From an uncultured archaeon (GTDB taxonomy: Archaea; Asgardarchaeota; Thorarchaeia; Thorarchaeales; Thorarchaeaceae), in NCBI GenBank assembly GCA_964354495.1, contig CAYHAA010000035.1, positions 1-10,606 of the forward strand: a stretch of 10,606 nucleotides of DNA, in the 5' to 3' direction. Position numbers and translations under genes: made by a program. The notes below the pieces were generated by a model. That model was not told the origin of the DNA. It saw only the letters and a program-made list of their open reading frames with translations, and did not search any database. Each line of letters opens with the position of its first letter. Position 1 is the stretch's first letter. Below, one piece after another: positions 47 through 10,606 of the stretch.

Positions 47-105
47 CTGCGGGCGGGAGGGAGGTGTCTGCCTTATAGTTCCTTCGTATGAGGCTCTGTC
101 TGCCT
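47..105 (+). repeat. Dispersed intergenic hairpin repeat, copy R1 (long form)
   Basis: 75-99 ATAGTTCCTTCGTATGAGGCTCTGT matches 5018-5042 at 23/25 nt. The G-rich left arm CTGCGGGCGGGAGGGAGGTG resembles CTGCGGAGGGAGGAGAGTG at 4991-5009. Internal 9-bp direct repeat TGTCTGCCT at 65-73 and 97-105. Confidence 0.9.
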
Positions 106-122
106 ATATCCATGGACCTATT

Positions 123-607
123 GGCAAATCGATTATTGGAGGTATATACTATGGTTCATTGGAAGTATAAGGAGATATTCACTCGGAGGTACATGAACTG
201 TTCACCTCAGACTCTCTGGCAAGCACTGTCAGTGGCAAAGAGAATGCCTTCACCATCAAAACTCTCCTCTGAGTGGTTCATGAATTTCCTCATGCAATAT
301 GACAACCTGTGGACTAGGTCTGCCTACTACTACTACTTCAAAGTCATTTGTCAGGAACTGGGCAGTGAATGTCTATGCCCTGATGATATCTCTCACACTA
401 AGTACATCATTGCTTCTTTGGTTGACTTCTGGAGCAACACTAGGATTCATACCTCTTGTTGGAGCAGTCTTCTTCATCCTTTCAGATTCAGTTATTGGTA
501 TCAGAGAGTTTCATCATGACATTAGGAATGCAGAGATAATGATACTCTCAACATACTGTCCAGCAATCTTCCTTCTCTCATCAGGAGCGATTTTCTTCAC
601 ATTTTAG
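123..607 (+). pseudogene. yhhN: Decayed/truncated YhhN-family (lysoplasmalogenase-like) membrane protein gene; intact C-terminal part in ORF 299-607
   Basis: ORF 299-607 carries VYALMIS...GAVFFILSDSVIGIREF...ILSTY, the typical YhhN C-terminal pattern, but is only 102 aa. Upstream frame 3 reads IIGGIYYGSLEV*GDIHSEVHELF...AFT, resembling the YhhN GD..LF..AF segment with stops and frame changes. The 5' boundary is uncertain. Confidence 0.65.
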
Positions 608-611
608 AGTG

Positions 612-670
612 AAGAGAAAAAGAAAGAGTGATGCTCCTCCTATGAGGATTATCACTTTATTTCTTCTTCA
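612..670. terminator. Hairpin between convergent genes, flanked by T-rich tracts on both strands (possible bidirectional terminator); also a degenerate copy (R0) of the dispersed repeat
   Basis: GTGAT(628-632) pairs with ATCAC(651-655); TCCTC(635-639)-CTAT-GAGGA(644-648). The minus-strand tract is TCTTTCTTTTTCTCTT (612-627); the plus-strand sequence after the stem is TTTATTTCTTCTTC. Confidence 0.55.
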
Positions 671-2369
671 TGAGAACTATTACCACAATGAGAAGGACCA
701 GTATTCCAGCAGCTCCAGCGATGACTAAAGTCATTGAATCTATTAGCTGACCACCAGTAGTTGAACTAGTTGTTGTGATCGTGATACTTGTAGTTCCTGT
801 ACTTGTTGATGTTGGTGTTGTTGCAGGCTGTGTCACAGTAACAAGAACTGTGTCGGATGCAGAATTCCCAATCGTATCGTTTACGAATAATGTATACAGA
901 TGAACACCCACTTCTAGTCCATCAATGATAACATCAAAGCTGGAACCATTCCATAGACCTGAATCAATCGCAGTCCCATTCTTTGATATGATGTACGAAT
1001 CGGGAAAGAGGTCAGAACAAATCCAAACAAGATGATTACCTGTGAGACCAAGTTCATAGGTGATGTCTTCTAGAGGCGTTACTGAGGGCGAATTATCATC
1101 AAGCATTACTGTTATAATGACTTCATCAGTTGCGTAATTACCATAGGTATCATTAGCACTTAGTATAAAGATATAGGATGCCACGGAGAGTCCATTCAGG
1201 TTCACTCTCAAATCTGTGCCATTCCATGGTCCTTGATCTATCACAACACTGTCTTTTGTGATAACGAAATACTCAGGATACGGTTCGTCACATAGCCAAG
1301 TGAGGTACTCACCGGATATGCCATATGGAATGGAAAAATCAGCAATATCGGAGATTGTTGGCACAGTAGTATCAGTTACATTGACATAAACAGTATCCGA
1401 TGCGAAATTATCCAGGTCATCATAGACAATTAAATCGTATTTATAATAGCCCGGGTCTAGATTGGTTAGAGGGAAAGAGATCTGAGAACCATTCCATGAT
1501 CCATAGTCATCGAGCACATCATCGATATACAATTCAAAGTTCTCAGGAGCATATGCTTCAGGTGTCCATATCAGGCTCACTGAGTCCGAATATTCCATTT
1601 CGATGTCATCTATTGAATCGACCTCAGGAGCAACACCACCAGTGATTTTTATCCAATCTATTCGTATATCAGGATAGGTATGATACTCATTCACATAAAA
1701 GTGCAAGGAAATAACGCTAATTGTCCTTGTTTCAGCAGCATGTTCGCTAGTTGAAACAACTCCATCGCCAAGATTTGTTCGAGTTGTACTATCTGCTGGG
1801 TTGTACCATATTGATGAGTAGTTCATGTAATTTGATGTGTACTCATAGTCATAGGTATACAAATCACCGGTATAGTGATTTATTGCCCAACTCACCTTAC
1901 TGGAACCAGAAGCTCCATAGGCAAGACGATAGGCAACACCCATATCCTGACATGTCAGAATATCAAGGCCACCCTCCTCGGACCCTGTAGGAGTATATTG
2001 AACCTGCGCTTCTAGCTTGAAGTTATAATCCACTACGAAGGTAGTACTGAGAGGAAAATTGAAGCTAGCATGCTCAATTCCACCAGAGGAAACTACATTT
2101 GAGAATAATGCTATCCCTGATGAATTCAAAGTCCATTCACCATATGATGTAGTCCATCCAGTAGTATTTGATCCATCATGATACCAAGTCGTCAATTCTT
2201 GTGCAGCGGGTGAGAGACCTCTGCTTTTTTCCATTGCATCTACTCTTCTATTGTTCATCACATCAGTAGACGTCCCAAACATTGAGGACGATATAAAAAA
2301 TAGACTCATGGAAAGAAAGAGTGTAAGTGCAAGAGCCACCGTTAGTATTTCTCTAGTGTGCTTGTCCAC
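657..2369 (-). CDS. Membrane-anchored cell-surface protein: signal/TM, beta-rich (lectin/LamG-like?) N-domain, 3 Ig-like repeats, Thr-rich linker, C-terminal TM + KKK
   Basis: 570-aa ORF with GTG start. Hydrophobic N-terminus ILTVALALTLFLSMSLFF; three ~86-92-aa repeats with L.W, G.WNG[ST] and D..[GD]N.A.D.V.V motifs; linker TQPATTPTSTSTGTTSITITTTSSTT; terminal LVIAGAAGILVLLIVVIVLM-KKK; many N-x-S/T sequons. Confidence 0.9.
   Translation of the reverse strand: MDKHTREILTVALALTLFLSMSLFFISSSMFGTSTDVMNNRRVDAMEKSRGLSPAAQELTTWYHDGSNTTGWTTSYGEWTLNSSGIALFSNVVSSGGIEHASFNFPLSTTFVVDYNFKLEAQVQYTPTGSEEGGLDILTCQDMGVAYRLAYGASGSSKVSWAINHYTGDLYTYDYEYTSNYMNYSSIWYNPADSTTRTNLGDGVVSTSEHAAETRTISVISLHFYVNEYHTYPDIRIDWIKITGGVAPEVDSIDDIEMEYSDSVSLIWTPEAYAPENFELYIDDVLDDYGSWNGSQISFPLTNLDPGYYKYDLIVYDDLDNFASDTVYVNVTDTTVPTISDIADFSIPYGISGEYLTWLCDEPYPEYFVITKDSVVIDQGPWNGTDLRVNLNGLSVASYIFILSANDTYGNYATDEVIITVMLDDNSPSVTPLEDITYELGLTGNHLVWICSDLFPDSYIISKNGTAIDSGLWNGSSFDVIIDGLEVGVHLYTLFVNDTIGNSASDTVLVTVTQPATTPTSTSTGTTSITITTTSSTTGGQLIDSMTLVIAGAAGILVLLIVVIVLMKKK
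834..1631 (-). repeat. Three tandem Ig-like protein domain repeats (1374-1631, 1098-1373, 834-1097)
   Basis: Aligned motifs LIWTPE/LTWLCD/LVWICS, GSWNGS/GPWNGT/GLWNGS, and DDLDNFASDTV/DTYGNYATDEV/DTIGNSASDTV. Confidence 0.85.
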
Positions 2370-2394
2370 TTCTTCTACTTCCTAGAATTCCATT

Positions 2395-2410
2395 TTTACT
2401 ATAAATTAAA
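2395..2410 (-). promoter_or_regulatory. Candidate archaeal TATA box for the surface protein gene
   Basis: Minus strand TTTAATTTATAGTAAA; TTTATA lies ~31 nt upstream of the GTG start at 2369. Confidence 0.5.
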
Positions 2411-2412
2411 CG

Positions 2413-2826
2413 TCACAAAAAAGGCGAAATTAAACATTGTGAGTCCTTAGGTGCCCTAGTGATCGAACCAGATATTGCAACAATCTCTATGTGTGCTGCA
2501 TACCATGATGGATCAAACTGTCCAATACAGAGTCCTCCAATTGAGCCTCCATATGCAGTAGCATAAACATTGTCAGTTCCATTTACGACTGCTCTGATAG
2601 GGACTCCATTTTGAAGTGCAGTGTTGTTATAGTCCCACCCATGGGAACTTGCTACACCCCATATCAGCCAGACTTCAGTTTCACTATACTGCATCCAGTA
2701 ATATGATGGAGCACTTGTGAACATAATATCATCCCAGATTACATCCTCACTCTTTCTATTTTGGTTGATTCCAGTGATTCTATGGGTATCTGTTCCAGCA
2801 GAGGTCATTTCATTGTAGGTCTTCAA
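2413..2826 (-). CDS. Hypothetical extracellular-type protein, probably a 5'-truncated gene fragment
   Basis: 137-aa ORF with TTG start and no signal peptide. It has W/Y/G/N-rich composition and NNT, NGT sequons like the neighbouring surface protein. The frame stays open upstream (GVYIDEQYATAQ) into the 3' end of the next gene. Confidence 0.5.
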   Translation of the reverse strand: MKTYNEMTSAGTDTHRITGINQNRKSEDVIWDDIMFTSAPSYYWMQYSETEVWLIWGVASSHGWDYNNTALQNGVPIRAVVNGTDNVYATAYGGSIGGLCIGQFDPSWYAAHIEIVAISGSITRAPKDSQCLISPFL

Positions 2827-2869
2827 TTGTGCAGTAGCATACTGTTCATCAATATAGACTCCTCTTGCT

Positions 2870-3568
2870 CTATATGAACGGATACAGTCTCCCGCTCAAT
2901 AAGAACAGGCTCAGCATGAGTCCCGAGAGAAGAGCGAATGTGACAACTACCTCGACCCATCTCTGCGCGAATGTGATGCGGGGTATAAGGAATCCAATAT
3001 TCCTCCGATAGTCCAACCACGCCTCTGGAAACAATCCTCTTAGATGATGTTCCTCGAACAATGCGAGTCCTATGTATGCTAACATCATCGGGAACCAGAT
3101 TGCAAGTGTCATCTCTGGTGTGAGGTATCCGAAGCCGAACGTATGCTGAAGAATCCAGACACTCCTGTTTGTCAATGAGGCCGTGAACATGAGCAGGCCA
3201 AGGTACTGAGGATGCCTGACTATTCCATACGGCCCGGTAGTGACGAGTCTTTCTCGCTCACTGCGATGTAGGAACAATACTGAGTAAAACAAGAGGCCGA
3301 GCCCGAGAAGTGTCAGTGCTATCTCAACGAGTCCTCCACCGAGGAATAGAGTCAGTAACAGAGCTGGGAAATAGACAAAATCAGTCACCATCACGACAAG
3401 GTAGATGAATAAAGGCATGGTCATGAGCCCCACATAGAAGTTGGGGGCGGAGATGAGAAGGGGAAGTATGTACGACACTGCATTCACTATCACCCTTCTG
3501 ATTCGTTCTACGCTCCCTGCCTTTGCCGAGGGTTCCGTACTGCCATCGTTACCCGTTGTCATCGCCAA
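2870..3568 (-). CDS. Isoprenylcysteine carboxyl methyltransferase / PEMT-family integral membrane methyltransferase
   Basis: Multiple TM segments, family motif LVTTGPYGIVRHPQYLG, and downstream EE..L...F...W.DY. Start is TTG 3568 or ATG 3562. Confidence 0.85.
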   Translation of the reverse strand: MAMTTGNDGSTEPSAKAGSVERIRRVIVNAVSYILPLLISAPNFYVGLMTMPLFIYLVVMVTDFVYFPALLLTLFLGGGLVEIALTLLGLGLLFYSVLFLHRSERERLVTTGPYGIVRHPQYLGLLMFTASLTNRSVWILQHTFGFGYLTPEMTLAIWFPMMLAYIGLALFEEHHLRGLFPEAWLDYRRNIGFLIPRITFAQRWVEVVVTFALLSGLMLSLFLLSGRLYPFI

Positions 3569-3607
3569 TCCGTACCTTCACTGTCTATGATGACTATCTC
3601 TACGTAT

Positions 3608-3622
3608 CTCCTTCCATGAAGC
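3608..3622 (+). repeat. Degenerate repeat copy R2b
   Basis: CTCCTTCCATGAAGC versus CTCCTTCGTATGAAGC (5022-5037): one deletion and one substitution, both in the loop. The CTTC/GAAG stem is intact. Confidence 0.5.
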
Positions 3623-3647
3623 GAAACAATCATAGCTGTAGACATCA

Positions 3648-3670
3648 TATATTTCCTTCGTAAGAGGCTC
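3648..3670 (+). repeat. Dispersed repeat copy R2a
   Basis: TATATTTCCTTCGTAAGAGGCTC matches 74-96 at 21/23 nt. Confidence 0.85.
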
Positions 3671-3813
3671 CTAATGCCATCAGCAATGGATGTAATAGCT
3701 AACCAATCATTGGAGGCGAGCCCTTTCGTTCATAAAGCCTGCAGTGAGATACTTAATCAAAGGTATTTGCGGTGTTCATCTGCAATCCTAATGGCAATCA
3801 CGGCGAGCAGCTG

Positions 3814-3851
3814 AAAAAAGAAGTAATTGCTCAACACTGATTGAATGTTGA
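3814..3851 (-). terminator. Candidate terminator of the 3865-4200 gene
   Basis: Inverted repeat TCAACA(3831-3836)-N9-TGTTGA(3846-3851) just after the stop, followed on the minus strand by T6 (3814-3819). Confidence 0.4.
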
Positions 3852-3864
3852 TCGTGCTGAGCAA

Positions 3865-4200
3865 TCATACTCTCTTTGCTAGAAGCAGAAGAGATCCAAT
3901 AATGACTAGAACTCCACCCACTGTGCTGGCAAAGTGGTACATGAGAATACCCATGATGATTACGACTATCCACTTGTTCCTGAATTCAAGCGCCTTGATC
4001 TTGATTGTGCCACTGTTCACTAGAGCAATCAGTGAGAATATGATTCCGAGGATGCCCATTATCATGCCATCAGTAATGAAGATCGTGAGCCAGGTGGGCA
4101 GGATAGGGTCCCATCCCATAATCTGAAGAATACCCTCAATGAGTCCAATGATGCCACCAATCAGTATTAGGATATCTCCTATTTTCTTAAGGTCCGCCAT
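3865..4200 (-). CDS. Small multi-pass membrane protein (111 aa), hypothetical
   Basis: Start moved from the ORF-track 4287 to ATG 4200 (MADLKKIGDILILIGGIIG), which has an AGGAG Shine-Dalgarno 8 nt upstream. About four hydrophobic Gly/Ile-rich helices. Confidence 0.8.
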   Translation of the reverse strand: MADLKKIGDILILIGGIIGLIEGILQIMGWDPILPTWLTIFITDGMIMGILGIIFSLIALVNSGTIKIKALEFRNKWIVVIIMGILMYHFASTVGGVLVIIGSLLLLAKRV

Positions 4201-4537
4201 TTTTAGTACTCCTGATATTTGTGGAACTGTCTTCGAAACATACCATGACGATGATGTGTATTGAAGCGTAGGTAAGAGAAAAAGCAATTGACGAGTAGCT
4301 AAAGATTGTGTCTTGGTAGCGCATCACTCCTCATGGCTGTTAAGAATTGGCATATCCATATGATTCCGGCTATATTTGACTATCGCCAAATTCGGTCTCT
4401 ATTCAACTTCGCCCATATCTTAATGCGCCTGTCAATTGCGCCTTTAACAGACCGTACAGGTTGTACAGAGCAGTCATACTTGGCGGGAATCATTGGTTTA
4501 ATATGCGACCCCTGCGATTCACGAATGGGAATCCGGT

Positions 4538-4873
4538 TTGTCTGTAATGGCCCCCGCGTATCTTTTGCCTTTGGCACTGGAATTTGGCCTGCTGCTGTAC
4601 TTTCTCTACATACTAAGGACTCGAGGCACGCAGAAGGACAGAAAATCCTTGTTCATTATCTCTATAATCCTCTCGTTCTTCGCCTCTGTCACAATCCTTG
4701 AGGTGTTGAACTACAGTATGATACCGCCACTGCCACCACCTCCAGCGACCCCTGAGAATTGGTATTCTGATGCCATGGTTATGCGCTCCCTAGCATCGAT
4801 GAAGGCTCAAGTCGAGGCCATATTCCTGTTCATTCTCGCATTGTCGTACATGTGTGCGAAATCACAGGAGTAG
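4538..4873 (+). CDS. Small 3-TM membrane protein with a proline-rich loop, hypothetical
   Basis: Three hydrophobic segments, a basic loop RTRGTQKDRK, and PPLPPPPATP. TTTAATAT (TATA-like) at 4497-4504. Start is TTG 4538 or ATG 4547. Confidence 0.65.
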   Translation: MSVMAPAYLLPLALEFGLLLYFLYILRTRGTQKDRKSLFIISIILSFFASVTILEVLNYSMIPPLPPPPATPENWYSDAMVMRSLASMKAQVEAIFLFILALSYMCAKSQE

Positions 4874-4911
4874 TCTTCGCAGCCGGAGTAGTCCAAGTCA
4901 ACGTTTGATGG

Positions 4912-4926
4912 TCAGGAGACTCCTGA
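4912..4926. promoter_or_regulatory. Perfect 15-bp palindrome (operator or hairpin)
   Basis: TCAGGAG-A-CTCCTGA, 38 nt after the stop of 4538-4873. Confidence 0.35.
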
Positions 4927-4990
4927 GATTTGGCACTCAAGGGAAGGTAACAGAAGCTTCTCTCTATGAACAATGCGGACTCTGGACTAA

Positions 4991-5042
4991 CTGCGGAGGG
5001 AGGAGAGTGCCCTGCTCATAGCTCCTTCGTATGAAGCTCTGT
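4991..5042 (+). repeat. Dispersed repeat copy R3 (long form)
   Basis: CTGCGGAGGGAGGAGAGTGCCCTGCTCATAGCTCCTTCGTATGAAGCTCTGT aligns along its length with 47-99; core 23/25 identical. Confidence 0.9.
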
Positions 5043-5259
5043 TTCCGTGTCTCATGAGATATGCAGTAGGGTCCTAACTCTACGTTTCATGATCAACTTG
5101 CTCAGTTCCTTTTTTGACTTCATGAATCATCTCAGTAGTTTCTGCTCGATTGGTGTTGTCAGAGCTATCATCAAGGATGCCGGAATAGATCATGTGCGCT
5201 CAGCATTGCTGGGTGGTGAAATATCGACTGAACAACCATCCGGTTCTCAGGCATTCTAA

Positions 5260-5290
5260 GACCGCGCTTAGCGGGTCAATTATGTTTAAG
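5260..5290 (+). promoter_or_regulatory. Hairpin plus candidate TATA box upstream of the flavodoxin gene
   Basis: GACC-G-CGC-TTA-GCG-G-GTC stem (5260-5277) and TTTAAG at 5285-5290, ~41 nt before ATG 5332. Confidence 0.35.
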
Positions 5291-5331
5291 AGTAGCATTT
5301 CAATAGGAACAGAGGCCGAGAATCGGACAGC

Positions 5332-5835
5332 ATGAACGCTATTGTGGTATACTATTCTAGAACCGGGACTACTAGGAAAGTAGCGGAAGGAATCTCAACA
5401 GCCCTCAAATGTGATGTTGAAGAAATCATTGATACGGAAAACAGGTCAGGCGTCATAGGTTGGCTGAAATCAGGCAGAGACGCAGGTCGAAAGGCATCAG
5501 CAGAGATTGAACCGCTGAAGAGAGATCCGGCCTCCTATGACATCGTGGTCATTGGAACCCCAATGTGGAACCACACACTTGCTACACCGGTCAGAGCCTA
5601 CATCACACAGTACAAGGATCGCTTCAAGAGAGTTGCCTTCTTCCGGACAGGAGCCAGCACTGACGACGACCCATTTGATGAAATGGAGTCCCTCTGCAGA
5701 AAAAAGCCAGTTGCCACCCTGAAACTCCGTAGAAAGTCACAAGTCGAAGCTAACCTGTATGAAGAAAGAGTCAGAGAATTCGCCGAAAGAATCACTACGG
5801 ATGCCCAGGACCCACGCACAAAACAGGCTAAGTAA
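5332..5835 (+). CDS. Flavodoxin-family protein
   Basis: FMN-binding loop VYYSRTGTT, YDIVVIGTPMW motif and VAFF.T strand; 167 aa. Confidence 0.92.
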   Translation: MNAIVVYYSRTGTTRKVAEGISTALKCDVEEIIDTENRSGVIGWLKSGRDAGRKASAEIEPLKRDPASYDIVVIGTPMWNHTLATPVRAYITQYKDRFKRVAFFRTGASTDDDPFDEMESLCRKKPVATLKLRRKSQVEANLYEERVREFAERITTDAQDPRTKQAK

Positions 5836-5919
5836 TAGGAGAAAGCCCCGTTCTAGCAATGGCTTTAGTGCACTGAACAAGTTAAATAGCTCTCATATAT
5901 GACTGCCAATCGGTGAGTC

Positions 5920-6861
5920 ATGTTGAGAGTGCTCGTGCTTGGTGGTACTGGCTTTCTGGGTTCAAGGATTGTCACCAGACTGAGCTCGCGTGGTCATGAG
6001 GTCACAATACTCACCCGTCGGACTGAGGCAGCAAAATACTTCGGTAGTAAGGGCATTGAAACGATTGTAGGGGACCTCATGGAGCCCGAGGCGTTCATAG
6101 ACAGCATAGGTCCGCAGGACTGCGTAGTCTCTGTTGCAATGCCTTTTGAGTTCGGAAGAATATCGAAGAGCAAGTTCGCTCAGATCAAGGAGAGGACGAC
6201 CAAGTTCGTGTCGACGGCTCTTACCATCGGGAAGAGACTCGACTGCCCTACCATACTGACTCTTGGCACTGCCTACAGCACTAAGCCAGGGCAAGTAGCT
6301 GACGAGTCTTGGCCACTTGTCCGGACGGGTCTCACGAAGGCTGGCGAAGAGGCGGACGTGCTTATTGCTAAGGCAAAGAAGGAGGGACAACCACTCATCA
6401 TAATGCTCCCGGGTCAGATCTATGGACCGGGTGGCCAGTTCCTCAAGATGTATGAGATGATGAAGAATGGGCGCTCGGGCGTCTTCGGGAGAGGTGACAA
6501 CCACATCCCGAGGGTACATGTCGATGACTGTGCTCAGGCCTTTGTTCTTGCCATAGAGAAACAGCCTGTGGGTGAGTCATTCATCATAGCTGACGACACT
6601 CCGTGTACCACGCGAGAATTCACAGAGCGCATGGCGGAGTGCATGGGACTGCCAAAGCCACGGACTGTTCCAATATTCATCGCTCGAATCGTTCTTGGTG
6701 GTCTTCTTCTGAGCGTTATACAGATGGACTGCGTGGTGACTAATGAGAAGGCCAAGAGAGAGCTGGGCTGGGAGCTGCAGTACCCCTCTTATCGAGAGGG
6801 TCTCAAGGCTACAATCGACTATCTACGTGAAGGTACGGTCCCAGGCCCGTCCGGATCATAA
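5920..6861 (+). CDS. NAD-dependent epimerase/dehydratase family (atypical SDR)
   Basis: Rossmann GGTGFLG, PGQIYGPG, VHVDDCAQA and C-terminal NEKAKRELGW.L.YPSYREGL. No clear YxxxK catalytic motif. Confidence 0.92.
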   Translation: MLRVLVLGGTGFLGSRIVTRLSSRGHEVTILTRRTEAAKYFGSKGIETIVGDLMEPEAFIDSIGPQDCVVSVAMPFEFGRISKSKFAQIKERTTKFVSTALTIGKRLDCPTILTLGTAYSTKPGQVADESWPLVRTGLTKAGEEADVLIAKAKKEGQPLIIMLPGQIYGPGGQFLKMYEMMKNGRSGVFGRGDNHIPRVHVDDCAQAFVLAIEKQPVGESFIIADDTPCTTREFTERMAECMGLPKPRTVPIFIARIVLGGLLLSVIQMDCVVTNEKAKRELGWELQYPSYREGLKATIDYLREGTVPGPSGS

Positions 6862-6873
6862 GAGACAAGAGCA

Positions 6874-6910
6874 GAGGTGATACTTACCTCGTATGAGGCC
6901 CTGTCCTGCG
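6874..6910 (+). repeat. Dispersed repeat copy R4
   Basis: GAGGTGAT box, perfect hairpin CCTC-GTAT-GAGG (6887-6898). 6889-6905 matches 84-100 at 16/17 nt. Followed by TGTCCTGCG (6902-6910). Confidence 0.8.
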
Positions 6911-6996
6911 ATGAACAAGAGAAGTAGTAATGAATCTTAATTCTCAACCCGTCGTAAGGCATATCAGAAAGGTCTGTCAGCATAAAATGACTGCTC

Positions 6997-7614
6997 ATGC
7001 AAAACACAGGTCATAGCCCCTATAATGTGACAAAAAGGGATGCAAAGAAGGTCATTGAAACCATGGTCCAGGCATTCTTTGATGACCCTCTATGGTGTCA
7101 TTTCTTTCCAGAACACAACAGCAGGTCAAGAGTCCTTCCGAGATTCTTCAACTACCGTGTTAGGAATGGTTTCATCGATGGGAAAATCTTTGCCACCTCT
7201 GAAAACATTGAGGGCGTTGTTATCCTTACACAATCGGAACGCAAGAAGTTTAGTTGGTTAAGGGCAATTAGAACTGGAGGGATCGGCCTGTATCGAGTAG
7301 CTGGGCCTGACGTTGTTAGAGAAATGCTAGAATTGGAGAGTTTTGTGGCCAGCAAGAGAGCTGAGTGTGTTTCTGAGCCCTATTGGTATCTAGGATCATT
7401 GGCAGTTCATCCAGATTATCAAGGGAAAGGTCTGGCCAGTAGACTCATTCGACCTGTACTCGAAATGTGCACATCACAAAACAGACTCTGCGTTCTGGAT
7501 ACTCAGAATGAACGTCTTGTACAAATGTACAAACATTATGGTTTCGATACTGTTGACTCATTCATGTTACCTGTGGTCAACATCCAACAATACATCATGG
7601 CCAGACAACCGTAG
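6997..7614 (+). CDS. GNAT-family N-acetyltransferase
   Basis: AFFDDPLW N-terminus, motif A YLGSLAVHPDYQGKGLASRLI, and motif B LDTQNE...MYKHYGF. Confidence 0.92.
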   Translation: MQNTGHSPYNVTKRDAKKVIETMVQAFFDDPLWCHFFPEHNSRSRVLPRFFNYRVRNGFIDGKIFATSENIEGVVILTQSERKKFSWLRAIRTGGIGLYRVAGPDVVREMLELESFVASKRAECVSEPYWYLGSLAVHPDYQGKGLASRLIRPVLEMCTSQNRLCVLDTQNERLVQMYKHYGFDTVDSFMLPVVNIQQYIMARQP

Positions 7615-7661
7615 TAATAGGGGACCTCTTCTCTACATTGCCAAAGAGAAAGACCGAGTAT

Positions 7662-7697
7662 GGAGAGTGTCCTGCGTATAGTTCCTTCGCATGAGGC
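7662..7697 (+). repeat. Dispersed repeat copy R5
   Basis: GGAGAGTGTCCTGCG followed by TATAGTTCCTTCGCATGAGGC (7677-7697), which matches 74-94 at 20/21 nt. Confidence 0.9.
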
Positions 7698-7818
7698 GCT
7701 ATCGCTCTTCTACACAAAGGATGGATTCAGACAGAAGCAAATGTGCCCCGCGTTGTTTCACTATTTGAGTATCCGGTATTGAGAAGAATTATCTGAGTGC
7801 TCATCGATACGGTACGAG

Positions 7819-8208
7819 GTGATTCTTGGAGTGAGCGGACCAGACCCCCGAAAGGTCGTCCTCAAGTATATCAAGGCAATCAATTCGCGAAACTCTGAAG
7901 CGCTCGTGGCGTTGCAAACCGAGGACTTCACCTTCATCAACTATGAGGGAGATGCCTACGTTGGTCGAGCTGGATGGCGTGACTACTTCACCGCATACCC
8001 GGAGTACAAGATACACGTGGATAGGCTCATCACCAGCGGGACTGGCGTTGCAATCATCGGGCGGACGACCGGCTGTCATGTTGGTCCGGAGGTCGAAGCA
8101 AGATGGACAGTGCTCTGGACTGCAGAGGTCAGACAGAATCTTATCGCTGAATGGCGTATCTACTCGGATGCTGAGGAGATCAGAGGGGCAATAGAAGCGG
8201 GACGGTGA
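7819..8208 (+). CDS. SnoaL-like / NTF2-fold protein
   Basis: V..YI.AIN..N...L..L..EDF..I...G....G...W..YF...P.Y......L pattern. GAGGTGAT at 7816-7823 suggests the real start is the in-frame GTG 7831. Confidence 0.8.
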   Translation: MILGVSGPDPRKVVLKYIKAINSRNSEALVALQTEDFTFINYEGDAYVGRAGWRDYFTAYPEYKIHVDRLITSGTGVAIIGRTTGCHVGPEVEARWTVLWTAEVRQNLIAEWRIYSDAEEIRGAIEAGR

Positions 8209-8323
8209 TGCCGGAGTTATCGAGACGATATCCACGTACCGTGAGAAGATCTGTAAGACAACGGCCCATGCGAATCCTCTATATGGCTAAGAATGAAACA
8301 CTCATTCTGCGAGAGATGGTGTA

Positions 8324-8887
8324 TTGGCTGATATTGACAAAAGTGCGAAGAAATCTGCATTTGCTATTGTCATTCTCAGGATTCTCTTGACACCTGCATT
8401 CTTCTATGCATTCATGTGGGACTTCACTGAGATTGCAGTCATTCTCTATCTTGCAGCATTTGCCTCTGATATTGTAGACGGCATCTTGGCAAGGAGGCAA
8501 GGAATAATCCCGTCATCGCCCGTCGAGGCCTATCTTGATCCTGTAGCTGATTTTGTGTTAATCTTCGCATCTTTCTATGTATTCTCTCTCAAACAGTTCT
8601 ACCCCTCTTGGATCTTGTTTGTATTTGTCCTCATGTTCCTATTCTTCATCATCTCGTCGAGCAAGAAAGAGCCCCTTTACGATCCTGTGGGAAAATACTA
8701 TGGAACATTTCTCATGACCACAATTGGAATCACTCTCTTCTTTCCAACAGAGCCTGTCTTCAATGGCGTTCTACTTCTCATCATTGGATATACAGCTGGC
8801 TTGGTCATCTATCGAGCAGTCTATCTCTGGAATAATCGAAAAGAAAATGAGGGTCTGAGGTTCTCTGAGGAAGTGAAGACAAGATAG
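8324..8887 (+). CDS. CDP-alcohol phosphatidyltransferase family protein
   Basis: SDIVDGILARR...EAYLDPVAD matches DxxDGxxAR...GxxxDxxxD except that G2 is E. Multiple TM helices; TTG start. Confidence 0.85.
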   Translation: MADIDKSAKKSAFAIVILRILLTPAFFYAFMWDFTEIAVILYLAAFASDIVDGILARRQGIIPSSPVEAYLDPVADFVLIFASFYVFSLKQFYPSWILFVFVLMFLFFIISSSKKEPLYDPVGKYYGTFLMTTIGITLFFPTEPVFNGVLLLIIGYTAGLVIYRAVYLWNNRKENEGLRFSEEVKTR

Positions 8888-8909
8888 GCAACAGTGTGAG
8901 TGAGACGCT

Positions 8910-9461
8910 ATGAACAAGAAACGAGTCTGCGGTCTGACGTGTATCATCGTCATTGCAGGACTGATAATCAGCGGAGTGATTATTGTCAACCTCAATAGTG
9001 TTGAGATAGTTCGGGATGTGGCAATCAACAATCCAGATGGGTCAACCGGCACGGCATTCGTGGTGTTCCGACCCGGAGTGACAGGTTTCAACGAGGCTGT
9101 GGTGAATGAATTCGTTCGCGGACTAGTAGACTCGGACTGGCGAGTGGAAGTGACCACGAGTTCATCGGTGACCCCCACAAATATGACTGGATATGACCTG
9201 ATTGTTCTAGGGAGCCCAACGAACGGGGCAAAACCACACGCATCGATGCTTGACTATCTCACACGTGTTGATTTTGGAGGAAGGCCTGTCGTGTTGATCC
9301 TTACGTCTGGTGGACTAGGTGGAGCTGGACTTGACCACTTCAGGAATGCAACTATCGACGCAAATGGCGTGGTCCTTAGTGCAATGCAATTCGCGATATA
9401 TGAGATGGATGCAGGAAGCAGAGCCTATACTGCTGGGACCGAGGTGTCGTTGGAACCATAG
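8910..9461 (+). CDS. Membrane-anchored flavodoxin-fold protein
   Basis: Basic N-terminus plus a single TM (CIIVIAGLIISGVIIV), then AFVVF.PG, YDLIVLGSPT and PVVLILTSGG flavodoxin-fold strands. It starts 22 nt after the previous stop, so co-transcription is likely. Confidence 0.7.
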   Translation: MNKKRVCGLTCIIVIAGLIISGVIIVNLNSVEIVRDVAINNPDGSTGTAFVVFRPGVTGFNEAVVNEFVRGLVDSDWRVEVTTSSSVTPTNMTGYDLIVLGSPTNGAKPHASMLDYLTRVDFGGRPVVLILTSGGLGGAGLDHFRNATIDANGVVLSAMQFAIYEMDAGSRAYTAGTEVSLEP

Positions 9462-9618
9462 TCTGAGTAGTCTGCACGTACATTGCAAACCCATGAACTG
9501 TTCTCTTCGACCGTGCCCCAAGGACTATTGCTGCTAAGATCCACTCAAGAACAACCGCTAATGGTCATAGTCCCTCATTCTGCTATTCGCTTGTCAATGA
9601 ACTATCTCAGGAATAAGG

Positions 9619-10431
9619 ATGATAGATCATTGCTTCGAAAGCAAGTCCCATAAGCAACATTCATCGAAATCCATCTCTATGGGCGTGACTACTCAGAATT
9701 ACTACGTTCAGAGGAAGGACTATTGGCTAAAATTCTACCATAGCATGGTCGATAATAAGAAGGTTCAACAACTCGTGCTGGAAAAATACCTTAGTCCTGA
9801 AAAGATCCCTGAAATGAAGTCAAGAATACAACAGCAATTTGAAGAATTACTACCACAGATTCCGGATTTTGGAAACAAGCGAATTAACCCCTTTTCCAGG
9901 GAAATGATTAGGACCGCTCTATCTCTAGTGTTCTATCGGGTCCTCAAAGCAGAGGGATTTCAATTACAGACGATCGGACAGATGCTGTATGAATTCGCTG
10001 ATGTCTATTATGGAAGTCTAAACCCGTTCATCAAATACCTCATGCGTCGGCCTTACTTCTCTTCGTATTTTCAAAAGAAGGCAAAGAACGCGTTAGAAAG
10101 ACGAAAAGCATCGGTTGATCCCGAGGACTATCATTGCGTTTTCGTTGAAGGTGATAAAGAAAATCTCCTCTTTGGCGTAGATTACACCAATTGTGGAGGT
10201 CTGAATTTCCTAAAGCATCAAAATGCTCTAGAGCTAGCACCTTACCTCTGTCTGTGCGACTACCCAATGTACAGGGCAATCAAAGTTGGTTTTAATCGTG
10301 CTGAGAATTTGGCGATTGGTGGGGCGAGGTGTGCCTTTCGTTTTTATCGTAGTTATCCAACATTGAAAGGCTGGCCACCCGAAGAAGTAAGTGAATACAA
10401 AGACTTCAATTTTGCTAAACAGAAACCATAG
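9619..10431 (+). CDS. L-2-amino-thiazoline-4-carboxylic acid (ATC) hydrolase family protein (V4R-like fold)
   Basis: FGVDYTNCG, LAPYLCLCDY and R..NLAIGGARCAFRF Cys motifs typical of the family. The real start may be ATG 9679 (MGVTTQNYY). Confidence 0.8.
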   Translation: MIDHCFESKSHKQHSSKSISMGVTTQNYYVQRKDYWLKFYHSMVDNKKVQQLVLEKYLSPEKIPEMKSRIQQQFEELLPQIPDFGNKRINPFSREMIRTALSLVFYRVLKAEGFQLQTIGQMLYEFADVYYGSLNPFIKYLMRRPYFSSYFQKKAKNALERRKASVDPEDYHCVFVEGDKENLLFGVDYTNCGGLNFLKHQNALELAPYLCLCDYPMYRAIKVGFNRAENLAIGGARCAFRFYRSYPTLKGWPPEEVSEYKDFNFAKQKP

Positions 10432-10470
10432 TTCTTGTGCGTTCCAACTCGGATGTCCGTTCAACGATAG

Positions 10471-10499
10471 GGAGAGTGGCCAATTCCTTCTTTGATGCT
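10471..10499 (+). repeat. Degenerate repeat copy R6
   Basis: GGAGAGTG (as in 5002-5009 and 7662-7669) followed by TTCCTTC-TTTGATGCT, compared with TTCCTTCGTATGAGGCT; 40 nt after the stop at 10431. Confidence 0.45.
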
Positions 10500-10606
10500 A
10501 GCATTCCCAATAGCATAGTCATTGCGCTCTTGCCCTCTTTCTCCCCCTCCTACCGTTCATTGTAAGTTGTACAATCTTGGACACCAGAGCGTTGTACCCC
10601 CAGGAA

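Follow-up and report, generated by a model that had tools for sequence, protein, structure and literature searches.

Integrons are the textbook platform for gene capture. Here we describe a locus in an uncultured Asgard archaeon of the family Thorarchaeaceae that behaves like an integron (a single, hyper-variable array of small cassettes), yet is built on a different type of site and lacks a known recombinase. The DNA analyzed (the window) is the complete 10,606-nt contig CAYHAA010000035.1 (C35; 10.6 kb) of a 3.3 Mb genome (G000; assembly GCA_964354495.1) in 51 contigs, estimated to be 97.7% complete. The element in question is a short intergenic repeat, five copies of which divide the window into units of accessory genes next to a conserved, divergently transcribed gene for an acyl-CoA dehydrogenase (ACAD). 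On balance, we favor reading the repeats as double-stranded attachment (att)-like junction sites of an integron-like Thorarchaeaceae cassette array, at which an unrecognized enzyme would act in trans by site-specific recombination. This interpretation was drawn from comparison of sequences.

An attC-based survey has reported integrons in Archaea, with enrichment in Asgard genomes (PMC9668308). Its genome table (Data S1) contains only two Thorarchaeaceae metagenome-assembled genomes (MAGs), with two attC sites each, and omits the public MAGs SMTZ1-45, AB_25 and OWC2, which hold arrays of the kind described here. Surveys based on attC are blind to this locus, and full-text literature searches, covering open-access papers only, returned no description of it.

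The repeat and its confinement to one locus

The core of the repeat, TATAGTTCCTTCGTATGAGGC, occurs five times on the + strand of the window, starting at 74, 3648, 5017, 6879 and 7677, with 0, 2, 3, 4 and 1 mismatches, respectively. At ≤3 mismatches, four copies were observed against 0.00 expected (200 shuffles), and the fifth (6879-6899) was recovered at 4 mismatches and by a repeat finder. A sequence-only covariance model built from 54 repeat copies detected all five, with E values from 1.6e-14 to 1.9e-6. The five clear + strand copies that had been listed in an earlier note on this DNA were thereby confirmed:

25-105 (core 74-94), + strand: repeat copy 1, ACAD-proximal, with a long left arm of class A (see below); 46.8 bits
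3633-3679 (core 3648-3668), + strand: repeat copy 2; 24.7 bits
4997-5044 (core 5017-5037), + strand: repeat copy 3; 39.9 bits
6862-6905 (core 6879-6899), + strand: repeat copy 4, the most degenerate, 18 nt past the stop codon of an SDR gene; 21.4 bits
7657-7704 (core 7677-7697), + strand: repeat copy 5; 39.4 bits

The SDR-plus-repeat unit that contains copy 4 is kept in four genomes. Three weaker copies, which the same note had placed at 633-647, 3608-3622 and 10471-10499, were not found by the model with its filters off and E up to 10. The sequence at 10471-10499 is not homologous by position to the repeat found behind the same gene in another array, and a decayed repeat, either there or before the ATC_hydrolase gene, was not supported. 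A purine-rich box upstream of the core (GGAGAGTG / GGAGGTG) was found, as proposed, in four of the five window copies, where it belongs to a moderately conserved left shoulder (0.5-0.7 bits at -18 to -11). The position behind + strand stop codons that had been ascribed to five copies holds for copies 3, 4 and 5 only; upstream of genes on the minus strand are copies 1 and 2. A short upstream open reading frame (ORF) starting from the core ATG (10 aa, MRLC/SL...) was rejected as a feature of the site, being just the conserved left end of related cassettes with its frame lost in other copies.

In an anchored alignment of the 54 copies, the 21-nt core was nearly invariant (1.1-2.0 bits per position). 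Together with its shoulders the site measures ~32 nt, the left shoulder (GGG.AG.GCCCTGC) being moderately conserved and the right one (TCT..CTGC) short. Beyond the left shoulder, the left arms sort into three classes. Class A arms are long; in the first copy, the arm constitutes the ACAD leader, and it is repeated in many internal copies. Class B arms carry a TATA-like box ending 24 nt short of the start codon of leftward cassette genes, which resembles a promoter for leaderless transcription. In class C, the arm is simply the 3' end of the SDR gene. Note that unrelated leftward cassette genes have in common a ~30-nt element (ACTTAGA..TTTAAGTATAGAC) within their class B arms (L017:1310-1411, L019:445-546, L021:12887-12988 and others), suggesting a common promoter for leaderless transcripts that may travel with the cassettes.

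The site did not behave as a folded element. RNAalifold returned -0.18 kcal/mol and zero covarying pairs for the repeat, and DNA folding of the five window copies on both strands was no better than that of shuffled sequences (z -0.86 to +1.48). A candidate hairpin in class A arms (TCTTGCC / GGCGAGA) was discarded, as 80.1% of cells were paired versus 78.5% in shuffles, and an Rfam search at the repeats gave no match. The site contains no RYYYAAC, and the GTT of the core precedes CCTT rather than RRRY. The earlier statement that this is not an attC site was thus correct, with respect both to the missing fold and to the missing RYYYAAC...GTTRRRY ends. A tRNA-derived att site was likewise rejected; none of five array or flank loci contained a tRNA or tmRNA gene.

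Fuzzy matching and an nhmmer profile confined the core within the 3.3 Mb genome to the window contig. The copies are therefore not dispersed genome-wide, as would be expected of the ordinary terminator or untranslated-region (UTR) motif that the earlier note had considered, and a genome-wide family resembling repetitive extragenic palindromic (REP) elements was rejected on the same grounds. A lone, weak look-alike at C23:266-315 (L001; ~70% identical to copy 1, 10.7 bits) sits inside a 260-aa ORF near the gene for ribosomal protein S19; this doubtful match is either due to chance or a relic.

Across the family, the model matched 48 of 86 Thorarchaeaceae genomes, belonging to 10 of 16 genera, at essentially one locus per genome. 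Twenty contigs carried 2-7 matches each (66 in total) with zero strand discordance, and arrays on independent metagenome contigs were likewise co-oriented. When 185,579 species genomes were searched for the exact core 19-mer, 10 contigs were recovered, all of them loci already known among the Thorarchaeaceae relatives, plus one Prevotella contig, which we took as a chance match. A viral or plasmid carrier was considered and rejected: the single match in viral_contigs is attributed to chance because it consists of the exact 19-mer alone, with unmatched flanks.

Cassette shuffling and breakpoints at the core

Most arrays begin 58-64 nt upstream of the divergent ACAD, which flanks arrays in >11 loci, and end at a conserved distal flank of HxlR-like, ATP-cone, methyltransferase and HAD genes. 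Array size ranges from eight copies (L010) or more down to a single copy without any unit (L049). In the latter, ACAD, one repeat and the distal flank follow each other directly, the layout of an 'empty' site. Forty-two units were delimited, with a median length of 916 nt; 30 of these contain one gene, and gene strands are nearly balanced (30 plus, 27 minus). The cargo across arrays includes many multi-pass membrane proteins, SDR proteins, GNATs, flavodoxins, methyltransferases, NhaA, CAAX proteases, a Ras-family GTPase and TPR proteins. The Ras-family small GTPase is encoded at L025:9711-10370 (- strand; G048:C181) in a multi-gene array unit. Such GTPases are genes of the Asgard 'eukaryotic signature' type, and genes of this type can therefore join the mobile cassette pool.

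Individual cassettes recur at varied ranks and beside varied neighbors across genera. This was seen for F3 (a 220-aa membrane protein), SDR, GNAT, NhaA and F13; depending on the genome, F3 is first, second or third and SDR is first, third or last. When F3 cassettes were aligned, homology opened at the left core and closed inside the right core. Homology blocks on the ACAD side stopped at the first repeat copy in 72 of 72 cases. Relative to the core anchor, 26 of 63 left ends of internal blocks fell at -25 to +5, and 21 of 61 right ends fell at +5 to +30. Chance predicts ~2% for these intervals, corresponding to a ~20-fold enrichment of breakpoints at the core. The breakpoints are focused at +10 to +24 and at -20 to -11. 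As an example, the window aligns with L010 at 96.8% identity as far as +16 of the first core, beyond which the two sequences are unrelated.

The location of the first copy, which the earlier note had missed, points to the origin of the site. On the minus strand, copy 1 reads CTATAA 58 nt before the ACAD ATG, likely the TATA box of ACAD. The position of this TTATAG (+ strand) is kept at 58-69 nt from the ACAD ATG, array-less genera included. In the latter, whose ACAD orthologues are 80-91% identical, the distance of TTATAG from the start codon is 64-69 nt and a ribosome-binding sequence of the GAGGT type lies close to the ATG; the region upstream of ACAD holds a diverged form of the site. Specifically, the TTCCTTCGTATGAGG part has diverged at many positions in array-less genera, whereas it is nearly invariant in every array-bearing genus, in first and internal copies alike. 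Thus, conservation of the core tracks the presence of arrays, not expression of ACAD. Two closed genomes of the family without an ACAD orthologue are also without the site, which therefore is not an essential dif. Together, the site seems to derive from the promoter region of the conserved divergent ACAD gene.

The match of repeat copies to the consensus declines with rank from ACAD (rho -0.65), the first copy being the best in 9 of 11 arrays. This polarity is consistent with new units entering at the proximal copy while older copies decay.

Proposed recombination and its alternatives

Based on these comparisons, we propose that the core is read as double-stranded DNA, with the sequence on its left belonging to the preceding cassette and that on its right to the following one. 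The primary site would lie in the promoter region of the divergent ACAD, just past the likely TATA box, and the core would overlap the ACAD promoter. Units of one to four accessory genes, carrying their own promoters, would be inserted, lost or exchanged by recombination within the core, giving rise to co-oriented arrays with decaying distal copies. The recombination would be site-specific and performed in trans by an enzyme not recognized here, with insertion occurring mainly at the ACAD-proximal copy. One array per genome, co-orientation, shuffling, breakpoints at the core and the one-copy empty site all support the earlier suggestion of a junction or insertion site of a cassette system whose enzyme lies outside the window.

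Several observations weigh against this proposal. The position of crossover is bounded only to about -7 to +16; finer mapping from polymorphisms was precluded because the core varies too little. The dyad in the core is weak (CTTATA...TATGAG, 5/6, around an asymmetric center of 7-9 nt), making the site unlike a classical two-arm core site. Some rearrangements occurred away from the repeat: a flavodoxin gene was joined to the SDR unit, and ATC_hydrolase was fused into unit 5. The polarity statistic owes part of its value to the left arm of the first copy, an arm that selection may maintain as the ACAD leader. A circular or excised form of a cassette was not seen. Above all, no recombinase could be tied to the arrays. 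PF00589 (Phage_integrase) had no match in G000 at E≤0.01 and was not found in G004, G012, G047, G050, G053, G055, G059, G060 or G061. Y1-HUH (Y1_Tnp, PF01797), IS110 DEDD, Cas1 and rve were without match in G000 as well. Serine recombinases (PF00239) are sporadic (22 of 86 genomes), never located on the array contig and, like tyrosine recombinases, undetected in the majority of genomes that have the best arrays. No recombinase domain was present among at least 40 cargo and flank proteins.

The search for a recombinase covered the cargo, the ACAD-side and distal flanks, contigs C34, C25, C22 and C24, and the arrays of other genera, and yielded only IS607-type TnpA and TnpB-like genes located elsewhere in the genome. 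Phage_integrase was present in 29 of 86 family genomes, in none of them on the array contig. In a separate observation, Phage_integrase, to which a XerA-type dimer resolvase would belong, was found neither in G000 nor in 57 of the 86 Thorarchaeaceae genomes searched. The only site-specific recombinases of G000 are two IS607-type TnpA proteins (MerR helix-turn-helix plus resolvase, 200 aa each), with no repeat copy nearby:

C22:1314-1916, - strand: IS607-type TnpA (L040/L041 loci)
C24:10745-11347, + strand: IS607-type TnpA (L040/L041 loci)

The TnpA gene on C24 is near the gene for a 504-aa protein with a Cas12f1-like TNB (TnpB-type) domain. IS607-type elements were rejected as the system, given TnpA genes without a repeat nearby and the failure to find PF00239 in most array genomes. 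Two further candidates were also dismissed. F2, which is the largest of the recurrent cargo proteins that lack a Pfam match, is a membrane protein with nine transmembrane segments. F29, encoded in the distal flank of two genomes, is a small protein carrying a zinc ribbon of the topoisomerase type and has no homologue in G000.

If an enzyme stands behind the array, it is likely a new one. We tentatively consider a gene-capture system that would be integron-like in function but distinct in mechanism, using a ~30 bp double-stranded, promoter-derived site and a recombinase that is encoded away from the array and belongs to none of the tyrosine, serine, HUH, DEDD, DDE or Cas1 families. Such a system, for which we see a limited chance, would represent a new class of site-specific recombination machinery in archaeal relatives of eukaryotes.

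The failure to find a recombinase is also what would be expected if no dedicated enzyme existed. The repeats would then be duplications of the ACAD promoter and leader, serving as short homology arms for RadA-mediated homologous recombination after uptake of DNA from related Thorarchaeota, with gene conversion from the selected ACAD-proximal copy maintaining their similarity. Class A arms in many internal copies provide homology of up to ~90 nt, some rearrangements bypass the repeat, and conservation is usually highest in the first copy, all consistent with this explanation. However, conservation is concentrated in the 21-nt core rather than spread over 90 nt, and many internal copies (classes B and C) have the core in common but left arms that are unrelated. 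The sharp focus of the breakpoints described above also weighs against this explanation. Moreover, the part of the core that array-bearing genera keep invariant is free to diverge upstream of ACAD in array-less genera, so that promoter selection combined with conversion fails to explain its invariance. We regard recombination by homology alone as the main alternative, though a rather unlikely one. If there is no enzyme, a promoter-derived repeat organizes gene flux through homologous recombination alone.

A third explanation assigns the repeat a cis-regulatory role as a DNA element, either an operator for a local regulator (for example, the HxlR-like protein encoded in the distal flank) or a promoter directed leftward, co-regulating a stress or detoxification island; its position at unit boundaries would be incidental. 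In line with this, the minus strand reads a purine-rich stretch followed by CTATAA at the near-constant distance from the ACAD ATG, the distal flank has a conserved gene of the HxlR family, and oxidoreductases, flavodoxins, methyltransferases and GNATs are abundant among the cargo. But the site is asymmetric and kept in one orientation while the genes face both ways. For plus-strand genes (SDR), it is found 12-18 nt past their stop codons, and the SDR gene has its own TATA-like element ~30 nt before the ATG; for minus-strand genes, it lies beyond their separate promoters, as with the class B TATA box, which ends 24 nt upstream of the start of F3. The edges of inter-genome homology at the core would also be left unexplained. 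A purely regulatory element thus appears improbable.

Finally, a selfish repeat resembling REP elements or miniature inverted-repeat transposable elements (MITEs), or a structured RNA, 3'-UTR or terminator element, as the earlier note had also entertained, would account for a short intergenic repeat with three window copies behind + strand stop codons, but is refuted by the absence of a confident copy elsewhere in the 3.3 Mb, by the negative results of DNA folding, RNAalifold, hairpin pairing and Rfam, by the lack of a Y1-HUH gene and, for the RNA versions, by genes on both strands and a position relative to genes that is not fixed.

Cargo of the window and comparison with described systems

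The five units of the window, with gene assignments from Pfam (and, for unit 3, blastn), and the features at its two ends are as follows:

1-18, - strand: first 18 nt of ACAD (start codon 16-18), the remainder being on C34
95-3647: unit 1
299-607, + strand: YhhN fragment
657-2369, - strand: PKD/Ig surface protein
2413-2826, - strand: unknown gene
2870-3568, - strand: PEMT/ICMT-like methyltransferase
3669-5016: unit 2
3865-4287, - strand: unknown gene
4306-4701, + strand: unknown gene with a homologue in another array
5038-6878: unit 3
5051-5130: remnant of a membrane-protein cassette
5332-5835, + strand: flavodoxin-like
5920-6861, + strand: SDR/epimerase
6900-7676: unit 4
6997-7614, + strand: GNAT acetyltransferase
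7698-10551: unit 5 (last), without a closing repeat
7819-8208, + strand: SnoaL-like
8324-8887, + strand: CDP-alcohol phosphatidyltransferase
8910-9461, + strand: unknown gene, 183 aa, with a sub-threshold FMN_red match only
9619-10431, + strand: ATC_hydrolase
10552-10606, + strand: first 55 nt of a dispersed repeat (~215 nt), not part of the cassette system

At its left end (68-249), unit 1 shares homology with units of L010, L017 and L051 that occupy other positions. The ORF at 299-607 (+) matches only the C-terminal half of YhhN (profile positions 105-181 of 182) and is overlapped in another frame by an ORF at 88-519 (+), the ATG of which lies inside repeat copy 1; this YhhN ORF is probably a truncated or frameshifted gene. 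The GNAT cassette of unit 4 is also present in L011 and L013. Inside the GNAT gene, at 7485-7517 (-), a sub-threshold match to the Rfam Glutamine-II riboswitch was noted (19.7 bits versus a gathering score of 33, E 0.3), most likely due to chance. ATC_hydrolase forms a separate repeat-bounded cassette in L052 and follows the SDR cassette in L010.

Contigs of the G000 assembly have 55-nt overlaps, through one of which C34 joins the left end of the window. By tblastn, ACAD was located at C34:9672-10910, with 90% identity to the orthologue in G004 and with the Pfam domains Acyl-CoA_dh N, M and C. At 1.1 kb from ACAD, a zinc-type alcohol dehydrogenase is encoded in two overlapping frames (C34:7539-8288 and 8213-8527; L042; ADH_N, then ADH_zinc_N), which represents either a frameshifted pseudogene or an assembly error. 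The window ends within the ~215-nt dispersed repeat, which explains why the contig stops at 10606. C25 begins with the end of this repeat and carries the conserved distal flank, the likely order thus being C34, C35, dispersed repeat, C25.

The dispersed repeat is unrelated to the cassette repeat. It is present in G000 in at least 20 copies at 75-98% identity (window 10552-10606; C8:83610-83824, C27:14593-14810, C25:2-118 and 2989-3120, C42:1-95, C6:152723-152816 and others), and several contigs start or end inside it. It had no match in Rfam and may represent either a MITE or one end of a TnpB-type element.

Among described systems, REP elements and bacterial interspersed mosaic elements (BIMEs) with RAYT resemble the present locus in having a short repeat between genes. 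In contrast to these, the repeat described here is neither dispersed nor palindromic, and no RAYT is present.

The pdif modules of Acinetobacter plasmids and integrative mobile elements exploiting Xer (IMEX), which use the host Xer/dif system, are closer. They too are small modules without a recombinase of their own, with a conserved ~30 bp site that is recognized in trans, and IMEX elements stack co-oriented at one chromosomal site. However, pdif sites alternate in orientation and have a clear 11-6-11 dyad, as opposed to the weak 6-nt dyad found here, and no Xer-type recombinase was detectable in the array genomes searched.

Integrative elements stacked at att sites in gene ends (tRNA-gene islands, islands at the 5' end of dusA, integrase-less CIME-type elements) provide a further parallel. 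As in these, the direct repeats copy the end of a conserved target gene, here the promoter and leader of ACAD, the target gene remains intact, the junctions are hybrid, and several elements are stacked at one site. In contrast to such islands, the units at the present locus are single genes of ~1 kb without integrase, excisionase or transfer genes, and no matching integrase was found in the genomes searched.

With respect to integrons, the differences concern enzyme, site and expression. Neither IntI nor another tyrosine recombinase was found in the array genomes searched. While attC is an imperfectly palindromic site folding as single-stranded DNA, the present site is conserved in sequence rather than structure and forms a hairpin on neither strand. 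Genes in integron cassettes are mostly promoterless and co-oriented with a common promoter, whereas the genes here face both ways and promoter-like TATA elements are found inside units. Furthermore, the primary site is not located beside an integrase but in the promoter of a housekeeping-type gene.

Regardless of whether an enzyme is involved, the locus marks a defined hotspot at which Thorarchaeota gain and lose genes. The 32-bp core could serve as bait for a binding protein, and the locus as a marker for strain-level variation in metagenomes. In its overall organization it corresponds closely to integrons, above all sedentary chromosomal ones, and to clusters of attC sites lacking integron-integrases (CALIN): a single array per genome at a fixed locus, with co-oriented sites <4 kb apart, units that mostly contain a single gene and measure about 0.4-4 kb, and a diverse accessory cargo rich in membrane proteins. 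As in integrons, cassettes have been reshuffled among relatives and every junction combines parts of the cassettes on its left and right, and, as with the VCRs of Vibrio, the sites are very similar within the lineage.

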